DNA of 32,893 bases, taken from the UHGV virus genome UHGV-1353943, one strand, 5' to 3'. The position numbers and the translations under genes were made by a program. This document shows positions 2,981 through 18,237 of this stretch, in pieces (the first letter of the stretch is position 1; each line of letters begins with the position of its first letter). The notes under the pieces were generated by a model. The model was not told where the DNA came from and searched no databases. It saw only the letters and a list, made by a program, of their open reading frames with translations. This DNA comes from a virus.

Positions 2981-3364
2981 TCAGAATGGGATGGAATCGT
3001 CGTATACAGGGGTGTTCTGCTGGTTACTACTTTGCTGCTGCGGGCCATTTCCTGAAGCTGCAAATCCAATCTTTGCATTCAGTAATTCAAGAGTGATTGA
3101 TTGACCATTTTGCCCCTGATAAACATCAACCCTGATGTTTTCTCCGGTAATTTCCACAATGCCACCTTCAACAAGAACACTACGGTAGTAATCCGCTTGC
3201 GCTCCCGGCTTGGCAAATACAACGGCGCTGTAGTTTGTCCATTCTTTCTTTTTTGTCTGGCGATCGTAATACTGAACGCCAGCACGGATGTTGAATCCGA
3301 TATTTTCCCCGGCCTGAAACTCTCTTGCGGGCTTGTTTAGTCTTACAGTAATCGAATGTGCCAT
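2981..3364 (-). CDS. Single-stranded DNA-binding protein-like
   Basis: 127 aa ending in DDSIPF, like the acidic SSB C-terminal tail (DDDIPF); Q/N/G-rich linker before it; GAAGGAG RBS; start overlaps the Erf stop (TAATG). Confidence 0.55.
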   Translation of the reverse strand: MAHSITVRLNKPAREFQAGENIGFNIRAGVQYYDRQTKKKEWTNYSAVVFAKPGAQADYYRSVLVEGGIVEITGENIRVDVYQGQNGQSITLELLNAKIGFAASGNGPQQQSSNQQNTPVYDDSIPF

Positions 3365-3999
3365 TAAGCAGCCGCTCCTTCTAATTCGTCTCGTCTGATG
3401 TTGTAAACGTCCTGCGCTTTGTGCTGCTCAGGTGTGCCTTCGAGCATCTTCCACGCTTTGGCGAACGCCTGTTTAAGCTCTTCCACGGTGTTTTTCTGCA
3501 ATGCTGCGTCAGTGAATGCTTTTAGAACCTGTTCAGGTGTAGGTGATGGTTTTGATTGCTTTGCTGCTGCGTTCTGCTGATGTTTATGCTCGTCGGTATC
3601 TGCATCTTTCGCATCATCAATGCCGAACAAACCATTGAGGCAATACTTGCGTGCATAAGAGCTTGTAGCTCCCGTAACTTGTGCAGAATCCATTCCTTTC
3701 TTGCTTTCTTCCTCTCGTGCAAGAGCGGTTGCCGTATGACTGTTTTCGCCATCGGTAATAGTTGCCGTGGCTTTCACGTAATACCGATCACCAATCAACA
3801 CAACTTCATCGCTGATTGATAAAAACAGGCCATTCAGTAACGGCTTAACGCCTTCAAGAATGTCTTCGCAGCTTCTGTATTTATATTTGCCGAATGAGTT
3901 GTACTGATTCTTTGGCGCGTTCAGATTCTCCTGAATAGCTGCCAGTCTTGCGTAAAATTCTTTGCTCATATGATTGTTCTCAGAATGGACATGGCCCAA
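3364..3999 (-). CDS. erf: Erf-family ssDNA annealing (recombination) protein
   Basis: SYARKYCLNGLFGI core resembles the ERF superfamily; sits where lambda bet / P22 erf sit; start ambiguous (ATG 3999 or 3969). Confidence 0.65.
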   Translation of the reverse strand: MGHVHSENNHMSKEFYARLAAIQENLNAPKNQYNSFGKYKYRSCEDILEGVKPLLNGLFLSISDEVVLIGDRYYVKATATITDGENSHTATALAREEESKKGMDSAQVTGATSSYARKYCLNGLFGIDDAKDADTDEHKHQQNAAAKQSKPSPTPEQVLKAFTDAALQKNTVEELKQAFAKAWKMLEGTPEQHKAQDVYNIRRDELEGAAA

Positions 4000-4492: not shown

Positions 4493-4635
4493 GATTTCCA
4501 ATAATCAGAACAAGTCGGCTCCTGTTTAGTTACGAGCGACATTGCTCCGTGTATTCACTCGTTGGAATGAATACAAAGTGCAGTGTTTATTCTGTTGTTT
4601 GTGCCAAAAATAAAGGCCGACTATGCGTCCTGAAA

Positions 4636-5001
4636 TTACTTAACCAATGATGCTGCATATTCGATAAGGTAAAGTTTTGGAGCAAGCCAAATTTTCAGCC
4701 AGTCGAAATAATTGAAGAAAACAACAATAGAAGTAATCTCTATTCCTGATGTGACAAGTAGTGATAAAAGAACAATATCTGCATCATCTCCTTTATTCCA
4801 TGCAAAAATCATCAGATAAACACACGCTATAATCACCAATACACAGATAGCCTGAATTCCAGCTGATGATACGGCGTGCCACATCAAAAGCTGATGGATG
4901 ACATCAGGAATCTGTGCCTGGCTAAATGAAACAGCCGCGTCTATTCCATTGCTGGCTTTTTGCAGTAGTTCTACGAGAATCTTGTTTGCTTGTTCTTCCA
5001 T
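4636..5001 (-). CDS. Small membrane protein (two predicted TM helices); possible superinfection-exclusion-type gene
   Basis: 121 aa; hydrophobic stretches IQAICVLVIIACVYLMIFAW and IVLLSLLVTSGIEITSIVVFF; AAGGTGA RBS; AT-rich; terminators on both sides. Confidence 0.5.
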   Translation of the reverse strand: MEEQANKILVELLQKASNGIDAAVSFSQAQIPDVIHQLLMWHAVSSAGIQAICVLVIIACVYLMIFAWNKGDDADIVLLSLLVTSGIEITSIVVFFNYFDWLKIWLAPKLYLIEYAASLVK

Positions 5002-5049
5002 ATATCACCTTGATTGTAATAAGCATGAAATTATTTACGGCTAAAAAAT

Positions 5050-5080
5050 AAAGGCCACCATCAGGCAGCCTTGTTGTAAA
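5050..5080 (-). terminator. Intrinsic terminator (AAGGCTGCC-TGAT-GGTGGCCTT plus TATTTTTT on minus strand)
   Basis: Hairpin and T-tract read on the minus strand; overlaps the 3' end of ORF 5061..5312. Confidence 0.5.
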
Positions 5081-5312
5081 TGTTGCAGGTATCAAGTAAG
5101 TAATTAGATGGAGCGCCATAAATTATGAATTCATCGTTTGTCGGATCCATCTCCATCTCTTGGCCTATTGCCATTCTTGCGTCAGTGTCATCAGCGGCGA
5201 AGCATAAAACAGCCCACGCTCCCATTGTTTTAAAAAGAACTGCAATTGGCTGTGGTTTTACTGAATTTGCGTTAGCGCGAAAATCACAAATCGCACTTTC
5301 ATGAAATTCCAT
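5061..5312 (-). CDS. Hypothetical protein immediately downstream of N
   Basis: ORF 5061..5369; internal ATG at 5312 preceded by GAGGT RBS and clear of N. Confidence 0.4.
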   Translation of the reverse strand: MEFHESAICDFRANANSVKPQPIAVLFKTMGAWAVLCFAADDTDARMAIGQEMEMDPTNDEFIIYGAPSNYLLDTCNIYNKAA

Positions 5313-11691: not shown

Positions 11692-11860
11692 CCCATCCCA
11701 ATCCCTTCAATACCAGAAAGAAAGCGTCGAGCGAGCTTTAACGTGCGCTAACTGCGGTCAGAAGCTGCATATGCTGGAAGTTCACGTGTGTGAGCACTGC
11801 TGCGCAGAACTGATGAGCGATCCGAATAGCTCAATGTACGAGGAAGAAGACGATGAATGA
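11684..11860 (+). CDS. ninF: NinF-like small Cys-rich protein
   Basis: 58 aa ([28 protein letters not shown]...CEHCC...), below the ORF-track size cut-off; matches lambda NinF as recalled. Confidence 0.6.
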   Translation: MLSPSQSLQYQKESVERALTCANCGQKLHMLEVHVCEHCCAELMSDPNSSMYEEEDDE

Positions 11861-12575
11861 GTTAATAAATGGCAATGCTATCAAAATGACAAGCATTGAA
11901 ATCGCTGAGTTGGTGGGTAAGCGTCATGACAATGTGAAACGTACCATCGAAACGCTGGCTAAAAATGGTGTTATCCGGCTTCCTCAAATTGAGGTTTCCG
12001 AAAGAATCAATAACTTAGGGTTCAATGTTCAGTACGAGCATTACGTCTTCGAAGGCGAACAAGGTAAGCGAGATAGTATTGTTGTTGTTGCCCAGTTGTC
12101 GCCAGAGTTCACCGCTCGCCTTGTTGACCGCTGGCGAGAGCTTGAAGAAGCTGCGGTTAATATCCCCAAAACGCTACCGGAAGCGTTGCGCCTTGCTGCT
12201 GATCTTGCTGAGCAGAAAATGCAGCTGGAAAACCAGCTCGCAATTGCCGCACCTAAAGTTGAGTTTGCCGATCGCGTTGGCGAGGCCAGCGGAATTTTGA
12301 TTGGAAACTTTGCAAAGGTTGTCGGTATTGGTCCAAACAAACTGTTTGCGTGGATGCGCGATCACAAAATCCTTATTGCTTCAGGTTCCCGGCGCAGTGT
12401 GCCAATGCAGGAATATATGGATCGCGGCTATTTCACAGTGAAAGAAACAGCAGTCAACACAAATCACGGAATACAGATATCGTTCACCACAAAAATCACC
12501 GGGCGTGGTCAACAGTGGCTGACCAGAAAGCTGCTCGATAACGGAATGCTGAAAGTAACAGGTGAGGCTGCTTAA
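11853..12575 (+). CDS. Phage regulatory protein, Rha-family N-terminus with antirepressor-type C-terminal domain
   Basis: 240 aa; MTSIEIAELVGKRHDNVKR is a Rha/pRha signature; C-terminal half resembles KilAC/ORF6C domains. Confidence 0.55.
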   Translation: MNELINGNAIKMTSIEIAELVGKRHDNVKRTIETLAKNGVIRLPQIEVSERINNLGFNVQYEHYVFEGEQGKRDSIVVVAQLSPEFTARLVDRWRELEEAAVNIPKTLPEALRLAADLAEQKMQLENQLAIAAPKVEFADRVGEASGILIGNFAKVVGIGPNKLFAWMRDHKILIASGSRRSVPMQEYMDRGYFTVKETAVNTNHGIQISFTTKITGRGQQWLTRKLLDNGMLKVTGEAA

Positions 12576-13224: not shown

Positions 13225-13409
13225 ACGCCACAATTCAAACGATACCAGAGCTTCTTATCCAGACACGAGGCAATCAGACCGAAGTGGCAAGGATGCTTTC
13301 CTGCGCAAGAGGAACAGTGCTCAAGTACAACCGAGACAGCAAAGGCGAGCGTCACGTAATAGTTAACGGCGTCCTGATGGTCAAACAGGGCAAGAGGGGA
13401 AGACGATGA
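13221..13409 (+). CDS. ninH: NinH-like protein
   Basis: 62 aa; TIPELLIQTRGNQTEVARMLSCARGTVLKY resembles lambda NinH. Confidence 0.6.
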   Translation: MNATIQTIPELLIQTRGNQTEVARMLSCARGTVLKYNRDSKGERHVIVNGVLMVKQGKRGRR

Positions 13410-14029
13410 GACTCGAAAGCGTAGCTAAATTTCATTCGCCAAAAAGCCCGATGATGAGCGACTCACCACGGGCTACGGCTTCTGACTCTCTTTCCGGTAC
13501 TGATGTGATGGCTGCTATGGGGATGGCGCAATCACAAGCCGGATTCGGAATGGCTGCATTCTGCGGTAAGCATGAACTCAGCCAGAACGACAAACAAAAG
13601 GCTATCAACTATCTGATGCAATTTGCACACAAGGTATCGGGGAAATACCGTGGTGTGGCAAAGCTTGAAGGAAATACTAAGGCAAAGGTACTGCAAGTTC
13701 TCGCAACATTCGCTTATGCGGATTATTGCCGTAGTGCCGCGACGCCGGGCGCAAGATGCAGAGATTGCCACGGTACAGGCCGTGCGGTTGATATAGCAAA
13801 AACAGAGCAGTGGGGGAGAGTTGTTGAGAAAGAGTGCGGAAGATGCAAAGGCGTAGGCTATTCCAGGATGCCAGCAAGCGCCGCATATCGCGCTGTAACG
13901 ATGCTAATCCCAAACCTTACCCAACCCACCTGGTCACGAACTGTTAAGCCGCTGTATGACGCTCTGGTGGTGCAATGCCACAAAGAAGAGTCAATCGCAG
14001 ACAACATTTTGAATGCGGTCACACGTTAG
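13406..14029 (+). CDS. Q: Late antiterminator Q (lambda type)
   Basis: 207 aa; sequence, length and position before pR' match lambda Q as recalled; zinc-binding Cys cluster present. Confidence 0.85.
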   Translation: MRLESVAKFHSPKSPMMSDSPRATASDSLSGTDVMAAMGMAQSQAGFGMAAFCGKHELSQNDKQKAINYLMQFAHKVSGKYRGVAKLEGNTKAKVLQVLATFAYADYCRSAATPGARCRDCHGTGRAVDIAKTEQWGRVVEKECGRCKGVGYSRMPASAAYRAVTMLIPNLTQPTWSRTVKPLYDALVVQCHKEESIADNILNAVTR

Positions 14030-14303: not shown

Positions 14304-14378
14304 GGGTCAGTCGTATAAAGGTCATTACGGAAGGCTGTTAACCTTCTTATCGTGGTTCGAGTCCACGCTGTCCCGCCA
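14304..14378 (+). tRNA. tRNA-Asn-like (anticodon GTT), non-canonical D-arm
   Basis: Hand-folded: acceptor GGGTCAG/CTGTCCC (one T-T mismatch), anticodon stem GAAGG/CCTTC with loop CTGTTAA, T-arm CGTGG-TTCGAGT-CCACG, encoded CCA; D-stem only 3 bp. Confidence 0.5.
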
Positions 14379-14383
14379 AACAT

Positions 14384-14459
14384 GCTGGTTTAGCTCCAAT
14401 GGTAGAGCGGTCGCCTTGTAAGCGAATGGGTAGCGGTTCAAGTCCGTTAACCAGCACCA
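14384..14459 (+). tRNA. tRNA-Thr (anticodon TGT)
   Basis: Hand-folded 76-nt cloverleaf: acceptor GCTGGTT/AACCAGC, D-arm GCTC-CAATGGTA-GAGC, anticodon loop CTTGTAA, T-arm AGCGG-TTCAAGT-CCGTT, encoded CCA. Confidence 0.7.
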
Positions 14460-14701: not shown

Positions 14702-15025
14702 ATGAAGATGCCAGAAAAACATGACCTGTTAGCCGCCATTCTAGCGGCAAAGGAACAAGGCATCGGGGCAATCCTTGCGTTTGCAATGGCGTACCTTCGC
14801 GGCAGATATAATGGCGGTGCGTTTACAAAAACAGTAATCGACGCAACGATGTGCGCCATTATCGCCTGGTTCATTCGTGATCTTCTCGACCTCGCCGGAC
14901 TAAGTAGCAATCTCGCTTATATAACGAGCGTGTTCATCGGCTACATCGGTACTGACTCGATTGGTTCGCTTATCAAACGCTTCGCTGCTAAAAAAGCCGG
15001 AGTAGAAGATGGTGGGAATCAATAA
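14702..15025 (+). CDS. S: Holin S (lambda class I; dual-start antiholin/holin MKM motif)
   Basis: 107 aa, near-identical to lambda S as recalled ([20 protein letters not shown]...). Confidence 0.9.
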
Positions 15026-15485
15026 TCAACGTAAGGCGTTCCTCGATATGCTGGCATGGTCAGAGGGAACTGATAACGGACGTCAGAAAACCAGAAATCA
15101 TGGTTATGACGTCATTGTAGGCGGAGAGCTATTCACTGATTACTCCGATCACCCTCGCAAACTTGTCACGCTAAACCCCAAACTCAAATCAACAGCCGCC
15201 GGACGCTACCAACTTCTTTCCCGTTGGTGGGATGCCTATCGTAAGCAGCTTGGCCTGAAAGACTTCTCTCCGAAAAGCCAGGACGCTGTGGCATTGCAGC
15301 AGATTAAAGAGCGTGGCGCTTTACCAATGATTGATCGCGGCGATATTCGTCAGGCAATCGACCGTTGCAGCAATATCTGGGCTTCACTGCCGGGCGCTGG
15401 TTATGGCCAGTTCGAGCATAAGGCTGACAGCCTGATTGCAAAATTCAAAGAAGCTGGCGGAACAGTCAGAGAGATTGAGGTATGA
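15009..15485 (+). CDS. R: Endolysin R (lytic transglycosylase, lambda type)
   Basis: 158 aa, near-identical to lambda R as recalled; overlaps the S 3' end. Confidence 0.9.
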
Positions 15486-15919
15486 GCAGAGTAACCGCGA
15501 TTATCTCCGCTCTGGTTATCTGCATCATCGTCTGTCTGTCATGGGCTGTTAATCATTACCGTGATAACGCCATTACCTATAAAGAACAGCGCGATAAAGC
15601 AACGTACATCATCGCTGACATGCAGAAGCGTCAACGTGATGTAGCAGAACTTGACGCCAGATACACAAAGGAGCTTGCTGATGCTAACGCGACTATCGAA
15701 AGTCTCCGTGCTGATGTTTCTGCTGGTCGTAAGCGCCTGCAAGTCTCCGCCACCTGTGCAAAGTCAACGACCGGAGCCAGCAGCATGGGCGATGGAGAAA
15801 GCCCAAGACTTACAGCAGATGCTGAACTCAATTATTACCGTCTCCGAAGTGGAATCGACAAGATAACCGCGCAGGTTAACTACCTGCAGGAATACATCAG
15901 GACGCAATGCCTGAAATAA
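15482..15919 (+). CDS. Rz: Spanin, inner-membrane subunit Rz
   Basis: 145 aa; N-terminal TM ([21 protein letters not shown]) as in lambda Rz; central part diverges. Confidence 0.8.
15681..15866 (+). CDS. Rz1: Spanin, outer-membrane lipoprotein Rz1 (embedded in Rz, +1 frame)
   Basis: 61 aa from ATG 15681 with AAGGAG RBS; lipobox LVVSAC, Pro-rich; nested in Rz. Confidence 0.7.
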
Positions 15920-15950
15920 TTTTTTTGCAAATCACAAAGTCCATTTAATG

Positions 15951-15976
15951 AGCCTCGCGATGCGGGGCTTTTTTTA
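15951..15976 (+). terminator. Intrinsic terminator after the lysis cassette (AGCCTCGC-GAT-GCGGGGCT plus T7)
   Basis: 8-bp stem and seven T read directly. Confidence 0.65.
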
Positions 15977-16124
15977 CATCTGAATTTCACAGCGCATCTC
16001 ACGCGCATATTACATCACCCGAGCCTTTCAGAAAGTTGAGCCTGAGAACTGCCGTATATGGTGGCGACCATCTCGGGGCGGCTTTTCTGTGAGACAGGCT
16101 CACTTTCTAAAAGGTAAAGACGCT

Positions 16125-16622
16125 ATGAAAGCAATCACGCTTTTTAATACACCGATCCGTGTTGATGAATCAGGAATGATCTGCCTCACTGATATGTGGA
16201 AAGCCAGTGGTAAAAGTGAATCTGAATCTCCGTACCACTACCTGCGAAACAAGCAGACCAAAGAGTTCTTAGCCGAGCTGGAGAAAAACCACGAATCTGT
16301 GGTTTTTACTGAGCGCGGTGTACACGGTGGAACATATGGCGGGAAGTTTGTTGCTTACGATTATGCGGCTTGGTTAAACCCCGGGTTCAAGTACGCGGCC
16401 TATAAAGTCCTCGATGACTACTTCACCGGAGAACTTCAGCATCGCAACAGCTTAAGTGCGCAGCTCAACATGAAATGTCATGAGTTTGACCAGAAGAAAG
16501 ACATGGCGAGCTTCTGCGGACAAGGGCTGGCAGCATGGCGCTATACGAAGCCAGTGTTGGTCGCTGAGATTAACTCCCTGGCTAACCAGCTGCAGATTAC
16601 GATCCCCGGGCTTCCGGGATGA
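16125..16622 (+). CDS. KilA-N domain protein; accessory gene
   Basis: ORF 16089..16622; AAAGGTAAAG RBS before ATG 16125; KilA-N-like N-terminus ending in YAAWLNPGF. Confidence 0.55.
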   Translation: MKAITLFNTPIRVDESGMICLTDMWKASGKSESESPYHYLRNKQTKEFLAELEKNHESVVFTERGVHGGTYGGKFVAYDYAAWLNPGFKYAAYKVLDDYFTGELQHRNSLSAQLNMKCHEFDQKKDMASFCGQGLAAWRYTKPVLVAEINSLANQLQITIPGLPG

Positions 16623-16888
16623 GTGATCGTGTTATTGAATGCGCCTCCAGAGCGGGGCGCGACTTCTCAGAGTTCATGAAAGGCGAGAAGGGCATGATGG
16701 AAGCATTGGCCTCGGTGGATGAGTTTGGCGAGCAGCTGCGCCTCAACGGCTGTGTCAATCATCACTTTGTTAGCTACATGATGCGGAACTCGATCATGCA
16801 GGCATTCATGGACATGGCAAAAGCCGAGAGGAAAGAAGAGCGCCGGCGTAAGCGAGCGGAAGCAAAAGCAAAAGCAAAAGTGAAGTAG
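16619..16888 (+). CDS. Hypothetical protein with K/R/E-rich C-terminal helix
   Basis: 89 aa; ATGA overlap with the KilA-N gene; C-terminus AKAERKEERRRKRAEAKAKAKVK. Confidence 0.45.
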   Translation: MSDRVIECASRAGRDFSEFMKGEKGMMEALASVDEFGEQLRLNGCVNHHFVSYMMRNSIMQAFMDMAKAERKEERRRKRAEAKAKAKVK

Positions 16889-17136
16889 GCATTACAAAGC
16901 CCATTTACGGGTGGGCTTGATAATGAAACCGGAATTTATTCTGGGCCACCAGTTAACGGCAGTACCACGAAACAACCCAAGCCAGTAAGTGGGGAAATAA
17001 CACTGGCAGCCACTGAAAGATGAACCTCCTGCCTTATGGCAAAAAAGATTCTTTGTGGTGGCGGACTGATGGAAAGACATCGGTTATTGCAGAGGCCATT
17101 CAATGAGTGGTCTCGACAATGGCTTATACCCTACAC

Positions 17137-17165
17137 GGGATAACTTAACTGATATCCCTTTTAAC
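17137..17165 (+). promoter_or_regulatory. Inverted repeat GGGATA-N10-TATCCC followed by TTTTAA, just upstream of the HNH gene RBS
   Basis: Read directly; function unknown (attenuator or protein-binding site). Confidence 0.35.
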
Positions 17166-17183
17166 GGATAAACGGAGCCAACA

Positions 17184-17681
17184 ATGGCAAAGCTCGCAGA
17201 CAAACAAGAGCTGTTTTCCCATCCGGATGATGTGTATGTCGGAGAGTGTGTGATTTATACCGGCTACATAAATAAGCGAGGGTATGGGCAGAAGCACATT
17301 TCACGAAAGCCGCACTACGCACATCGAATCGCATACTGCGAAGCTAACGGAATTTCGCTAGATAGCATCAAGGACCTGGTTGTTAGGCATAAATGCGATA
17401 ATCCATCATGCGTGAATCCTGACCATCTGATTATAGGTACTGTCGCTGACAATAATCGTGACAGGTCAAGGCGAGGCAGAAACTCATACCCTGACCGTTC
17501 AGGTGAAAAGAACGGAATGGCGAAATTAAAAGAGTGCGATGTCATCTGCATTCGCCGCGAGTATGTGCGCGGGAGTGTAGGTAATGGGCTTAGGTCTTTA
17601 GCAAAGAGATATGGCGTATCCACTACCATGATTGCTGACATCGTTAATCATAGAAATTGGAGCAATGTTTCGGAGGTGTGA
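17184..17681 (+). CDS. HNH endonuclease (packaging-associated)
   Basis: 165 aa; H..R..Y, RHKCDNPSCVNPDHL and GT..DN motifs typical of HNH; directly upstream of the terminase genes; ACGGAG RBS. Confidence 0.75.
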   Translation: MAKLADKQELFSHPDDVYVGECVIYTGYINKRGYGQKHISRKPHYAHRIAYCEANGISLDSIKDLVVRHKCDNPSCVNPDHLIIGTVADNNRDRSRRGRNSYPDRSGEKNGMAKLKECDVICIRREYVRGSVGNGLRSLAKRYGVSTTMIADIVNHRNWSNVSEV

Positions 17682-18237
17682 TTTGAAACAGCTCACACCT
17701 AAGCAGGAACTGTTCTGCAGGGAATATTTAAAAGATTTAAACGCCACTCAGGCAGCTATCAGGGCGGGTTACAGCGAGAAAACTGCTCGCGCCACTGGTA
17801 GCGAGAACCTGTCAAAACCTGACATAGCAGATCGCATTGCTGAGCTAAAGGCTGAACGCAATGAAGAGGTAGGTATAGACGCTGCCTATGTATTGCGACG
17901 GCTGACTGAAATCGATCAGATGGACGTGCTTGACATTCTGCTTGCCAATGGCGAACTGAAGCCGATTAAAGACTGGCCTAAGGTGTGGCGTACAACGCTA
18001 TCAGGAATGGATGTCGTCGAGATGGTATCCGCAGATAGCGCCGCACTTCTGAAGAAAATCAAATGGCCTGATAAGGTTAAAAACCTTGAGTTGCTCGGGC
18101 GTCATGTTTCTGTTCAGGCGTTTAAAGACAATGTCAAAAATGAAGTGACTGGTGCTGACGGAGGACCAGTCAGAACAGAAATTACCAACTTAACGCCGGA
18201 GCAGGCTGCAGAAGCGTATAAAAAAATGATGGGCTAA
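17665..18237 (+). CDS. Terminase small subunit
   Basis: [28 protein letters not shown] is typical of terminase small subunits; start ambiguous (ATG 17665, or TTG 17683 behind a GGAGGTG RBS). Confidence 0.7.

Follow-up and report, generated by a model that had tools for sequence, protein, structure and literature searches.

A KilA-N and hkbL gene pair behind a predicted RNA leader in the late operon of a lambdoid phage

The virus genome UHGV-1353943, a stretch of 32,893 nucleotides (nt) referred to here as the window, is a lambdoid prophage or phage. Between its Rz gene and its terminase genes lie two short plus-strand genes, homologues of hkbK and hkbL of phage HK620, the first encoding a KilA-N domain protein and the second a small protein with a basic C-terminal helix. 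The pair is preceded by an intrinsic terminator, a GC-rich palindrome and a structured 5′ leader, and is followed by a further hairpin. A sequence-only reading of this gap had described the two genes as a coupled unit in a site for accessory genes, part of neither lysis nor packaging, and had raised the possibility of a host-interference or defence module. Public records already annotate both genes, along with their KilA-N and ORF11CD3 domains. To judge by the tools and literature searched, what has gone undescribed is the strict placement of hkbL after a KilA-N gene, the relationship of hkbL to T5orf172 proteins, and a terminator-plus-leader cassette shared with rha.

The KilA-N gene and its hkbL partner

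The first gene, the hkbK homologue (16125..16622, plus strand), encodes 165 amino acids (aa) from an ATG codon, comprising a KilA-N domain (residues 7-101) and an ORF11CD3 helical hairpin (residues 109-161). The Pfam profile search returned KilA-N (PF04383) at 58.5 bits against a cut-off of 23.8 (E=6.6e-16; positions 6-106 of the 107 in the profile), in agreement with the KilA-N similarity proposed in the sequence-only reading. It also returned ORF11CD3 (PF10549), absent from that reading, at 50.5 bits against a cut-off of 25 (E=2.4e-13), with the full profile covered. No match to Phage_pRha (PF09669) was obtained for this protein in Pfam, and nothing was found in NCBIfam or among PDB sequence profiles; the protein also matches phrog_129 and phrog_10441. 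AlphaFold2 modelled the protein at a predicted local distance difference test (pLDDT) score of 84, with long helices at 86-130 and 132-156 and the ORF11CD3 region as a long helical hairpin. An alternative GTG start at 16089 would give 177 aa. Homologue alignments, together with a leader model that ends at the AUG in every locus, support the ATG at 16125 as the probable start codon, and the Shine-Dalgarno (SD) sequence AAAGG lies 10 nt 5′ of it, at 16110-16114.

The second gene, the hkbL homologue (16619..16888, plus strand), overlaps the first through an ATGA at 16619-16622; both open reading frames (ORFs) and their junction are present on the plus strand where the earlier reading had placed them. 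It encodes 89 aa folded as three helices, with an Arg/Lys-rich C-terminal helix. AlphaFold2 placed the helices at 3-20, 26-42 and 48-88 (pLDDT 91.7), the third being the Lys/Arg/Glu-rich tail that had been predicted from the sequence. The protein belongs to phrog_875, a family of unknown function (E=3.7e-54), has no Pfam family, and in fold searches retrieved generic three-helix bundles only, with no specific match. Its family is tiny: a profile search found 21 matches among 1.84 billion protein cluster representatives. Against diverged homologues, both cassette genes show a ratio of nonsynonymous to synonymous substitution rates (dN/dS) of 0.05-0.26, indicating purifying selection.

Within the hkbL tail, Tandem Repeats Finder reported a hexanucleotide repeat, (AAGCAA)3.5, at 16860..16880 on the plus strand, which is in frame and encodes (AK)n. 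Its copy number ranges from 1 to 9 among otherwise near-identical loci, giving hkbL proteins of 85-101 aa. Because the variation stays in frame, the repeat amounts to a length polymorphism, not a phase switch. A candidate zinc site in the same protein (C8, C45, H48 and H49) was considered and dropped, since C8 is not conserved in the T5orf172-fused relatives described below and H48 and H49 are variable.

The same two genes are found in HK620 as hkbK and hkbL (NP_112071 and NP_112072), with about 96% nt identity; gene order, ATGA coupling and the location after Rz all agree, and HK620 hkbK covers the window gene at 96% nt identity. The two phages part company downstream, where HK620 continues with hkbM (DUF2560), hkbN and a different small terminase gene, whereas the window has an HNH_3 gene instead.

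Seen from hkbL, the pairing is strict. A KilA-N gene stands directly upstream of the hkbL homologue in 162 of 162 loci, with the architecture KilA-N+ORF11CD3 in 86, KilA-N+P63C in about 70 (as in mEp235 gp59 and HK022), and truncated remnants in 6. Throughout these 162 loci the hkbL start lies 0-2 nt from the upstream stop and hkbL has no SD of its own, an arrangement that bears out the two-gene unit of the sequence-only reading. Because it is without its own ribosome-binding site, translation of hkbL would depend entirely on ribosomes coming straight off the KilA-N gene, most likely by termination-reinitiation. Directly 5′ of the ATGA we read a GC hairpin, CCCGG-GCTT-CCGGG (16605-16618, plus strand). 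A hairpin of this type is kept in all ORF11CD3-type junctions, and we infer that it may enforce the coupling of termination to reinitiation.

A second connection to the same group of proteins comes from the edge of the hkbL family. In the two most distant full-length relatives, the hkbL-like domain is fused to T5orf172/MUG113, and T5orf172 is another domain of the Bro/KilA-N shuffling network. Of the two fused genes, one is the neighbour of a KilA-N+P63C gene within a tail operon, and the other occupies a gap between lysis and terminase genes. For the fused relative P0189, neither a scan of viral contigs nor blastn of its locus against phage records gave a match. Our reading of hkbL is that of a module for interaction or nucleic-acid binding, which would act together with KilA-N proteins.

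Cassette boundaries and the RNA leader

The scan for intrinsic terminators found a hairpin with a U-run at 15950..15977 on the plus strand (a 9-bp stem, 6 GC, at 15950-15970, then TTTTTTT). A hairpin occupies this position in every cassette variant examined, despite different stem sequences (GCCTCGC/GCGGGGC, GCCCACG/CGTGGGC, GAGCCAGC/GCTGGCTT and GGCACC/GGTGCC). The number of loci matching the window rises from 76 to 102-116 exactly at 15951, and the leader is common to more loci (102-116) than is Rz (about 70) or hkbK (84). The sequence-only reading had called this hairpin a post-lysis terminator. The hairpin itself stands, but its assignment to the end of the lysis cassette does not: it is instead the conserved 5′ boundary of the KilA-N cassette, with which it travels in every position examined.

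At the opposite end, the number of matching loci falls from 85 to 46 at about 16925. A hairpin that we read at 16897..16918 on the plus strand (AAGCCCA-N8-TGGGCTT) marks this 3′ boundary; it has no U-run on the plus strand, and it appears in the minus-strand scan as a weak site resembling a terminator. The boundary was mapped only among relatives of the window. Between these limits the region forms one mobile cassette of about 975 bp, from 15950 to about 16925.

Between terminator and leader lies a GC-rich hairpin or palindrome, which we call the GCGC box (CAGCGCATCTCACGCGCAT, 15990..16010, plus strand), followed by a short A/T-rich linker. It is present in all cassette types as symmetric variants (TGCGC..GCGCA, GCGCA..TGCGC, ATGCGT..ACGCAT and GCGCTT..AAGCGT), and might serve as an operator or promoter spacer, or form a second RNA hairpin. 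The second hairpin (GCCG..CGGC, then UUUUCUG) was considered as a second terminator and rejected, its U-run not being conserved. The promoter scan reported no plus-strand sigma-70 promoter in the cassette region, and no LexA box could be read in the cassette. The roughly 150 bp upstream of the first gene are chiefly a structured RNA leader, and not obviously a promoter.

Similar DNA was found in 309 phage records, and the region is matched in 2783 of 5426 complete E. coli genomes; hkbL is present in only 57 of 50,697 phage records. Across 80 IMG/VR loci with close relatives, hkbL is in each case immediately preceded by hkbK, the Rz upstream of the pair shows 50-99% identity to the window Rz, and the downstream genes vary by locus (DUF2560/hkbM, several small-terminase types, others). 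In Klebsiella phage RAH1, a Raoultella contig and about 70 Klebsiella-type viral contigs, the pair is instead in a tail operon, after a tail-chaperone-like gene and before the tape-measure gene. Common though it is, the pair is thus an optional movable unit and not a core terminase partner. The variable Rz, downstream genes and terminase types, together with the tail-operon copies, thus uphold the earlier placement of the pair outside both lysis and packaging, and, very common as it is, it is not a ubiquitous core component adjoining the terminase. As in morons, the cassette is present or absent between conserved neighbours and occurs in more than one genomic position. As to the moron layout of an own promoter and a downstream terminator, the scan gave no plus-strand promoter, a 9/12 match can be read by eye, the terminator lies upstream and the downstream hairpin has no U-run.

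The structured 5′ leader (16018..16130, plus strand) is built around a long interrupted stem at 16023-16115 (about 95 nt), in which GCCUUU (16023-16028) pairs with AAAGGU (16110-16115), the strand containing the SD. Its minimum free energy is -44.3 kcal/mol (z=-3.9), and 5 of 7 diverged sequence types fold independently to the same architecture. In every position, tail-operon copies included, and before both KilA-N architectures, conservation extends from the genes to the terminator, the GC hairpin and the ~110 nt after it.

Base pairing in the leader was assessed in two alignments. From a sequence-only alignment made with MAFFT (A5), RNAalifold found compensatory changes in 14 of 21 pairs. 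In this alignment, 93.6% of the cells are paired as compared with 77.7% after shuffling, and 15 pairs are changed on both sides against 10.2 (0/500 shuffles). The corresponding figures for a model-based alignment of 36 distinct sequences (A10) are 90.7% against 73.6%, and 28 of 34 pairs against 18.7 (0/500 shuffles), with a covariation score of 0.512 against 0.210 shuffled and at most 0.118 in slid controls. Helices 1-3 are 93-99% paired; the apical helix, with 57-61% of its cells paired, is not supported. About 8% of the paired cells are G-U, and the covariance model scores 26.7 bits on the minus strand versus 131.4. The frequent G-U pairs and the five-fold lower minus-strand score indicate that the conserved element is an RNA read from the plus strand. 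An Rfam 15 cmscan of 15800-17300 (E<=10) gave chance-level matches only, none of them over 16018-16130.

In five sequence types, 9-15 kcal/mol are needed to force the SD open. In most types the SD-open fold brings an upstream GAGCC (or GAACC) into pairing with the GGCUC (or GGUUC) of helix 3, and the two partners show one matching change from type to type; this fold rests on per-type constrained folds, and its register differs between types. These models hint that the leader may be a two-state or kinetic switch.

The leader before rha, and what the cassette may do

Matches to the leader covariance model always end at the start codon of the downstream gene, and these genes are not confined to KilA-N genes. 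The leader also precedes P22_AR_N+ORF11CD3 genes between endolysin (R) and Rz, a T5orf172 gene with an hkbL-like N-domain on a 39%-GC contig, and the rha genes of P22 and other phages. The model (R1) matches P22 at 43.4 bits (E=8e-11; L251 1538-1650, which is 39537-39649 of the record NC_002371) and the rha of phage 2B8 at 123 bits. In P22, it puts the rha AUG at record position 39644, while the annotated start, 39575, falls inside the leader stem and the Phage_pRha domain begins at residue 48 of the annotated 201-aa Rha. For these two reasons the P22 'orf201' is probably 178 aa.

The rha genes of P22 and phi80 resemble the window pair in occupying the late-operon slot between Rz and terminase, co-oriented with their neighbours. 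P22 further shares the terminator and leader, and its Rha (Phage_pRha+ORF11CD3) has the same C-terminal domain as the window protein. The difference lies at the N-terminus, which is Phage_pRha in Rha and KilA-N in the window protein, the latter not being a Rha protein, and in the absence of an hkbL-like gene after rha. The window cassette thus reads as the KilA-N allele of a 'rha slot', and it forms part of a domain-shuffling 'Bro/KilA-N network' made up of DNA-binding and antirepressor-like phage proteins.

A related system is P22 immI (mnt-arc-ant, with the sar antisense RNA), where a Bro-network antirepressor gene in a late operon is under tight post-transcriptional control. The two systems touch in that the leader described here precedes P22_AR_N-domain genes. 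They differ in that immI relies on Arc/Mnt repressors and an antisense RNA, not on a cis SD-sequestering hairpin, and the window protein is without Ant domains.

Several further arrangements of the leader and its genes were noted. In L171, L173, L176, L179, L183, L184, L190, L193 and L199, two leader-driven Bro-network cassettes flank Rz, with P22_AR_N+ORF11CD3 between endolysin and Rz, and KilA-N+ORF11CD3 plus hkbL after Rz. In L087 (Scandinavium hiltneri, 4575-5260), an HNH_3+AP2 endonuclease gene (4678-5229) lies between a complete leader copy (4575-4683) and a KilA-N+P63C gene, and the last ~35 nt of the leader, SD included, are repeated after it; this looks like a homing-endonuclease insertion into the leader. 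In the low-GC phage contig L169, a HicA/HicB toxin-antitoxin pair (3018-3652, opposite strand) occupies the lysis-to-terminase gap beside the leader-driven T5orf172 gene, from which we take this gap to be a general accessory-gene hot spot. The window has a second Bro-network protein, the Roi-like protein of the nin region (11853-12575; Phage_pRha plus ANT/KilAC), and no leader copy was found at its gene.

As summarised in PMC4936722, P22 rha belongs to the late operon and impairs lytic growth when IHF is missing, and this harmful effect provides an independent reason for tight dosage control of such genes. The cassette occurs only co-oriented inside Q-dependent late operons, terminator first. 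Given the upstream terminator, the lack of a scanned plus-strand promoter and the sequestered ribosome-binding site, late and throttled expression is favoured over expression from the prophage, the latter being what a defence gene would require. We propose, and consider about as probable as its contrary, that the cassette is a late-acting, dosage-sensitive DNA-binding regulator of the Rha/antirepressor kind whose translation is throttled. According to this proposal, the terminator would stop ordinary transcription from entering the cassette, Q-modified polymerase would read through it in lytic growth, and the leader would hold translation low through the ~10 kcal/mol needed to open the SD. What results would be a KilA-N DNA-binding dimer and its partner, made in small amounts and at a fixed ratio. 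Rha harms its own phage when misregulated, and by analogy the product would be a dosage-sensitive regulator that acts on DNA late in infection, and would be neither a lysis nor a packaging component. Late-only expression, translational repression and an interaction between the hkbK and hkbL proteins are what we infer on this account.

A number of findings weigh against the regulator proposal. The SD is nearly free in the lowest-energy fold of two leader types (mEp235/HK022/Klebsiella RAH1, and Leclercia), where opening it costs 0.6-5 kcal/mol, and for this reason 'always repressed' is too simple. The covariation comes from only ~7 sequence lineages; moreover, A10 was fitted to the model, and A5 was also the source of the structure tested on it. 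By eye, a weak promoter that the scan did not report (TTCACA-16 nt-TATTAC, 9/12 match) can be read around the GCGC box, between terminator and leader, so that the prophage may express the cassette; its -35-like hexamer is not conserved between cassette types. The linkage of the two genes fails in the converse direction, as the KilA-N gene of Salmonella phage SF11 has the same leader and no hkbL. In addition, hkbL variants that are 96% identical follow KilA-N proteins only ~21% identical, which sits uneasily with a specific protein-protein interface. Finally, the cassette has no IHF consensus site, so that the Rha analogy may not extend to regulation.

A broader version of the idea concerns the RNA itself. 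Terminator, GC hairpin and SD-sequestering stem may together represent an undescribed, widespread class of cis-regulatory RNA that gates Bro-network genes (Rha, KilA-N, P22_AR_N and T5orf172) in the Q-dependent late operons of enterobacterial phages, as a two-state switch set by co-transcriptional folding or by a trans factor, with the Arg-rich helix of hkbL (ERRRKRAE) as a possible RNA-binding feedback partner. In such a switch the upstream GAGCC/GAACC would free the SD by competing with the inner strand for GGCUC/GGUUC. We regard this as speculative and rather doubtful.

The regulator reading was ranked above three others. The first of these, close to what the sequence-only reading had suggested, makes the pair a prophage-expressed defence, abortive-infection or toxin-antitoxin-like module, in which the KilA-N protein would be a toxic or sensing effector, the small protein its neutraliser, and leader and terminator the means of holding a dangerous protein at trace level in lysogens. 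P1 KilA, whose expression kills the host, gave the KilA-N family its name, and the window protein is 30% identical to it over residues 11-127 (E=1e-10); P1 kilA differs, however, in lying in the lytic replicon, in being longer with another C-terminal region, and in having neither leader nor hkbL. BstA of Salmonella prophage BTP1 is likewise a KilA-N-like protein, encoded next to the repressor locus. In its description (PMC8585504), BstA mediates abortive infection, and there it is a protein of 307 aa with its own C-terminal domain, active in lysogens and accompanied by a DNA self-immunity element, of which none was found in the window. PADLOC gave no BstA model match for the window protein (165 aa, C-terminal ORF11CD3, late operon), which is otherwise set apart by the description of BstA; it did return a weak local match to the candidate PDC-S22 (E=6.8e-9, 31 residues). 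A defence module would also suit the very high prevalence in E. coli prophages, the possible by-eye promoter, the HicAB pair in the same gap of L169 and the tight coupling of the genes; indeed, two small co-translated genes, joined by an ATGA or a 2-nt gap across the 162 loci, are a trait of type II toxin-antitoxin systems. On the other hand, neither protein matched an established defence or toxin-antitoxin family in Pfam, NCBIfam or PADLOC, the hkbL fold is merely a generic three-helix one, and the terminator-first, co-oriented placement in Q-dependent late operons is the opposite of promoter-first morons expressed in lysogens. KilA-N genes with the same leader and no hkbL would also be unexpected if hkbL were an obligatory antitoxin. 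Overall, we consider a defence or toxin-antitoxin role unlikely.

The remaining two readings concern the leader and the downstream genes, respectively. With the proteins as in the regulator proposal, the leader might be an RNase III-type processing or stability element, cutting the lysis mRNA from the downstream late mRNA or protecting a 3′ end, with the SD pairing incidental. Its long interrupted duplex of ~29 bp, with a conserved asymmetric internal loop (CUGUG) on the 3′ side, resembles the RNase III sites of phage T7, and it stands at junctions between functional blocks of late operons. This does not account for the fact that helix 1 has its 3′ strand ending on the SD in all lineages, that no part of the 5′ strand is better conserved than the anti-SD CCUUU (the pairs of 9-11 with 125-127 being near-invariant), or that the leader always ends 8-12 nt 5′ of the AUG of a Bro-network gene and never of other late genes; we think it less probable than a defence role. 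A core or accessory packaging factor, for instance a helper in pac or cos recognition, could be imagined from the position directly upstream of the HNH gene and small terminase subunit in the window and from the predicted DNA-binding nature of KilA-N. The same pair, however, accompanies at least four small-terminase types as well as HK97-like cos phages, and it sits in tail operons far from terminase genes. Together with the scarcity of hkbL in phage records given above, and with rha taking this slot in P22, these facts make a packaging role very improbable.

Surrounding genes and significance

The rest of the late region is that of a lambdoid phage. The Q antiterminator gene (13406-14029) is followed by tRNA-Asn (GTT) and tRNA-Thr (TGT) at 14304-14459, which lie between the Q and holin genes and hence within the late-transcript leader. 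The lysis genes are holin (14702-15025), endolysin (15009-15485) and Rz (15482-15919). Downstream of the cassette come an HNH_3 or His-Me endonuclease gene (17184-17681; Pfam E=1.5e-9) and the small terminase gene (Terminase_2, 17632-18237), followed by those for the large terminase subunit and the portal.

The HNH_3 gene immediately precedes the small terminase gene, with which it overlaps, and was found in 0 of 167 related loci. It takes the place of HK620 hkbM (DUF2560) and hkbN, reusing their upstream region (17101-17183), and its product could be a homing endonuclease or a terminase-associated HNH protein like HK97 gp74. The TTG start listed for the small terminase ORF (17632) makes it overlap the HNH gene by 50 nt, and Terminase_2 begins at residue 21; as we read it, an internal ATG at about 17665 is the more likely start. 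Between cassette and HNH gene, ~210 nt of non-coding DNA (16889-17100) are common to only ~46 related loci. A minus-strand ORF at 16892..17080 was treated as non-coding, having no family match and an implausible composition. A sub-threshold Rfam match to Proteo-phage-1 at 16976-17011 (16.8 bits against a gathering score of 42, E=5) is probably due to chance.

Literature searches found no functional study of hkbK or hkbL, of ORF11CD3, or of a late-operon KilA-N protein. About half of complete E. coli genomes match the region, and both of its genes are functionally uncharacterised. The present analysis turns two 'hypothetical proteins' into a bounded unit with an RNA leader of explicit base pairs, a strictly coupled partner and a direct link to rha. 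It also corrects the annotation in two places: the 'post-lysis terminator' is part of the cassette, and P22 rha has an annotated start that probably falls inside the leader. A finding of this kind is unsurprising in principle; it is widespread and sharply defined.

Rha is a 40-year-old genetic phenotype without a mechanism, and the cassette makes the Rha question directly testable. If the switch reading is true, it would supply the missing mechanism for the dosage phenotype of Rha in P22 and phi80. If the leader is a general gate for antirepressor-like late genes, it would be a new entry for regulatory-RNA catalogues, and would explain how phages can carry proteins that are harmful when over-made.

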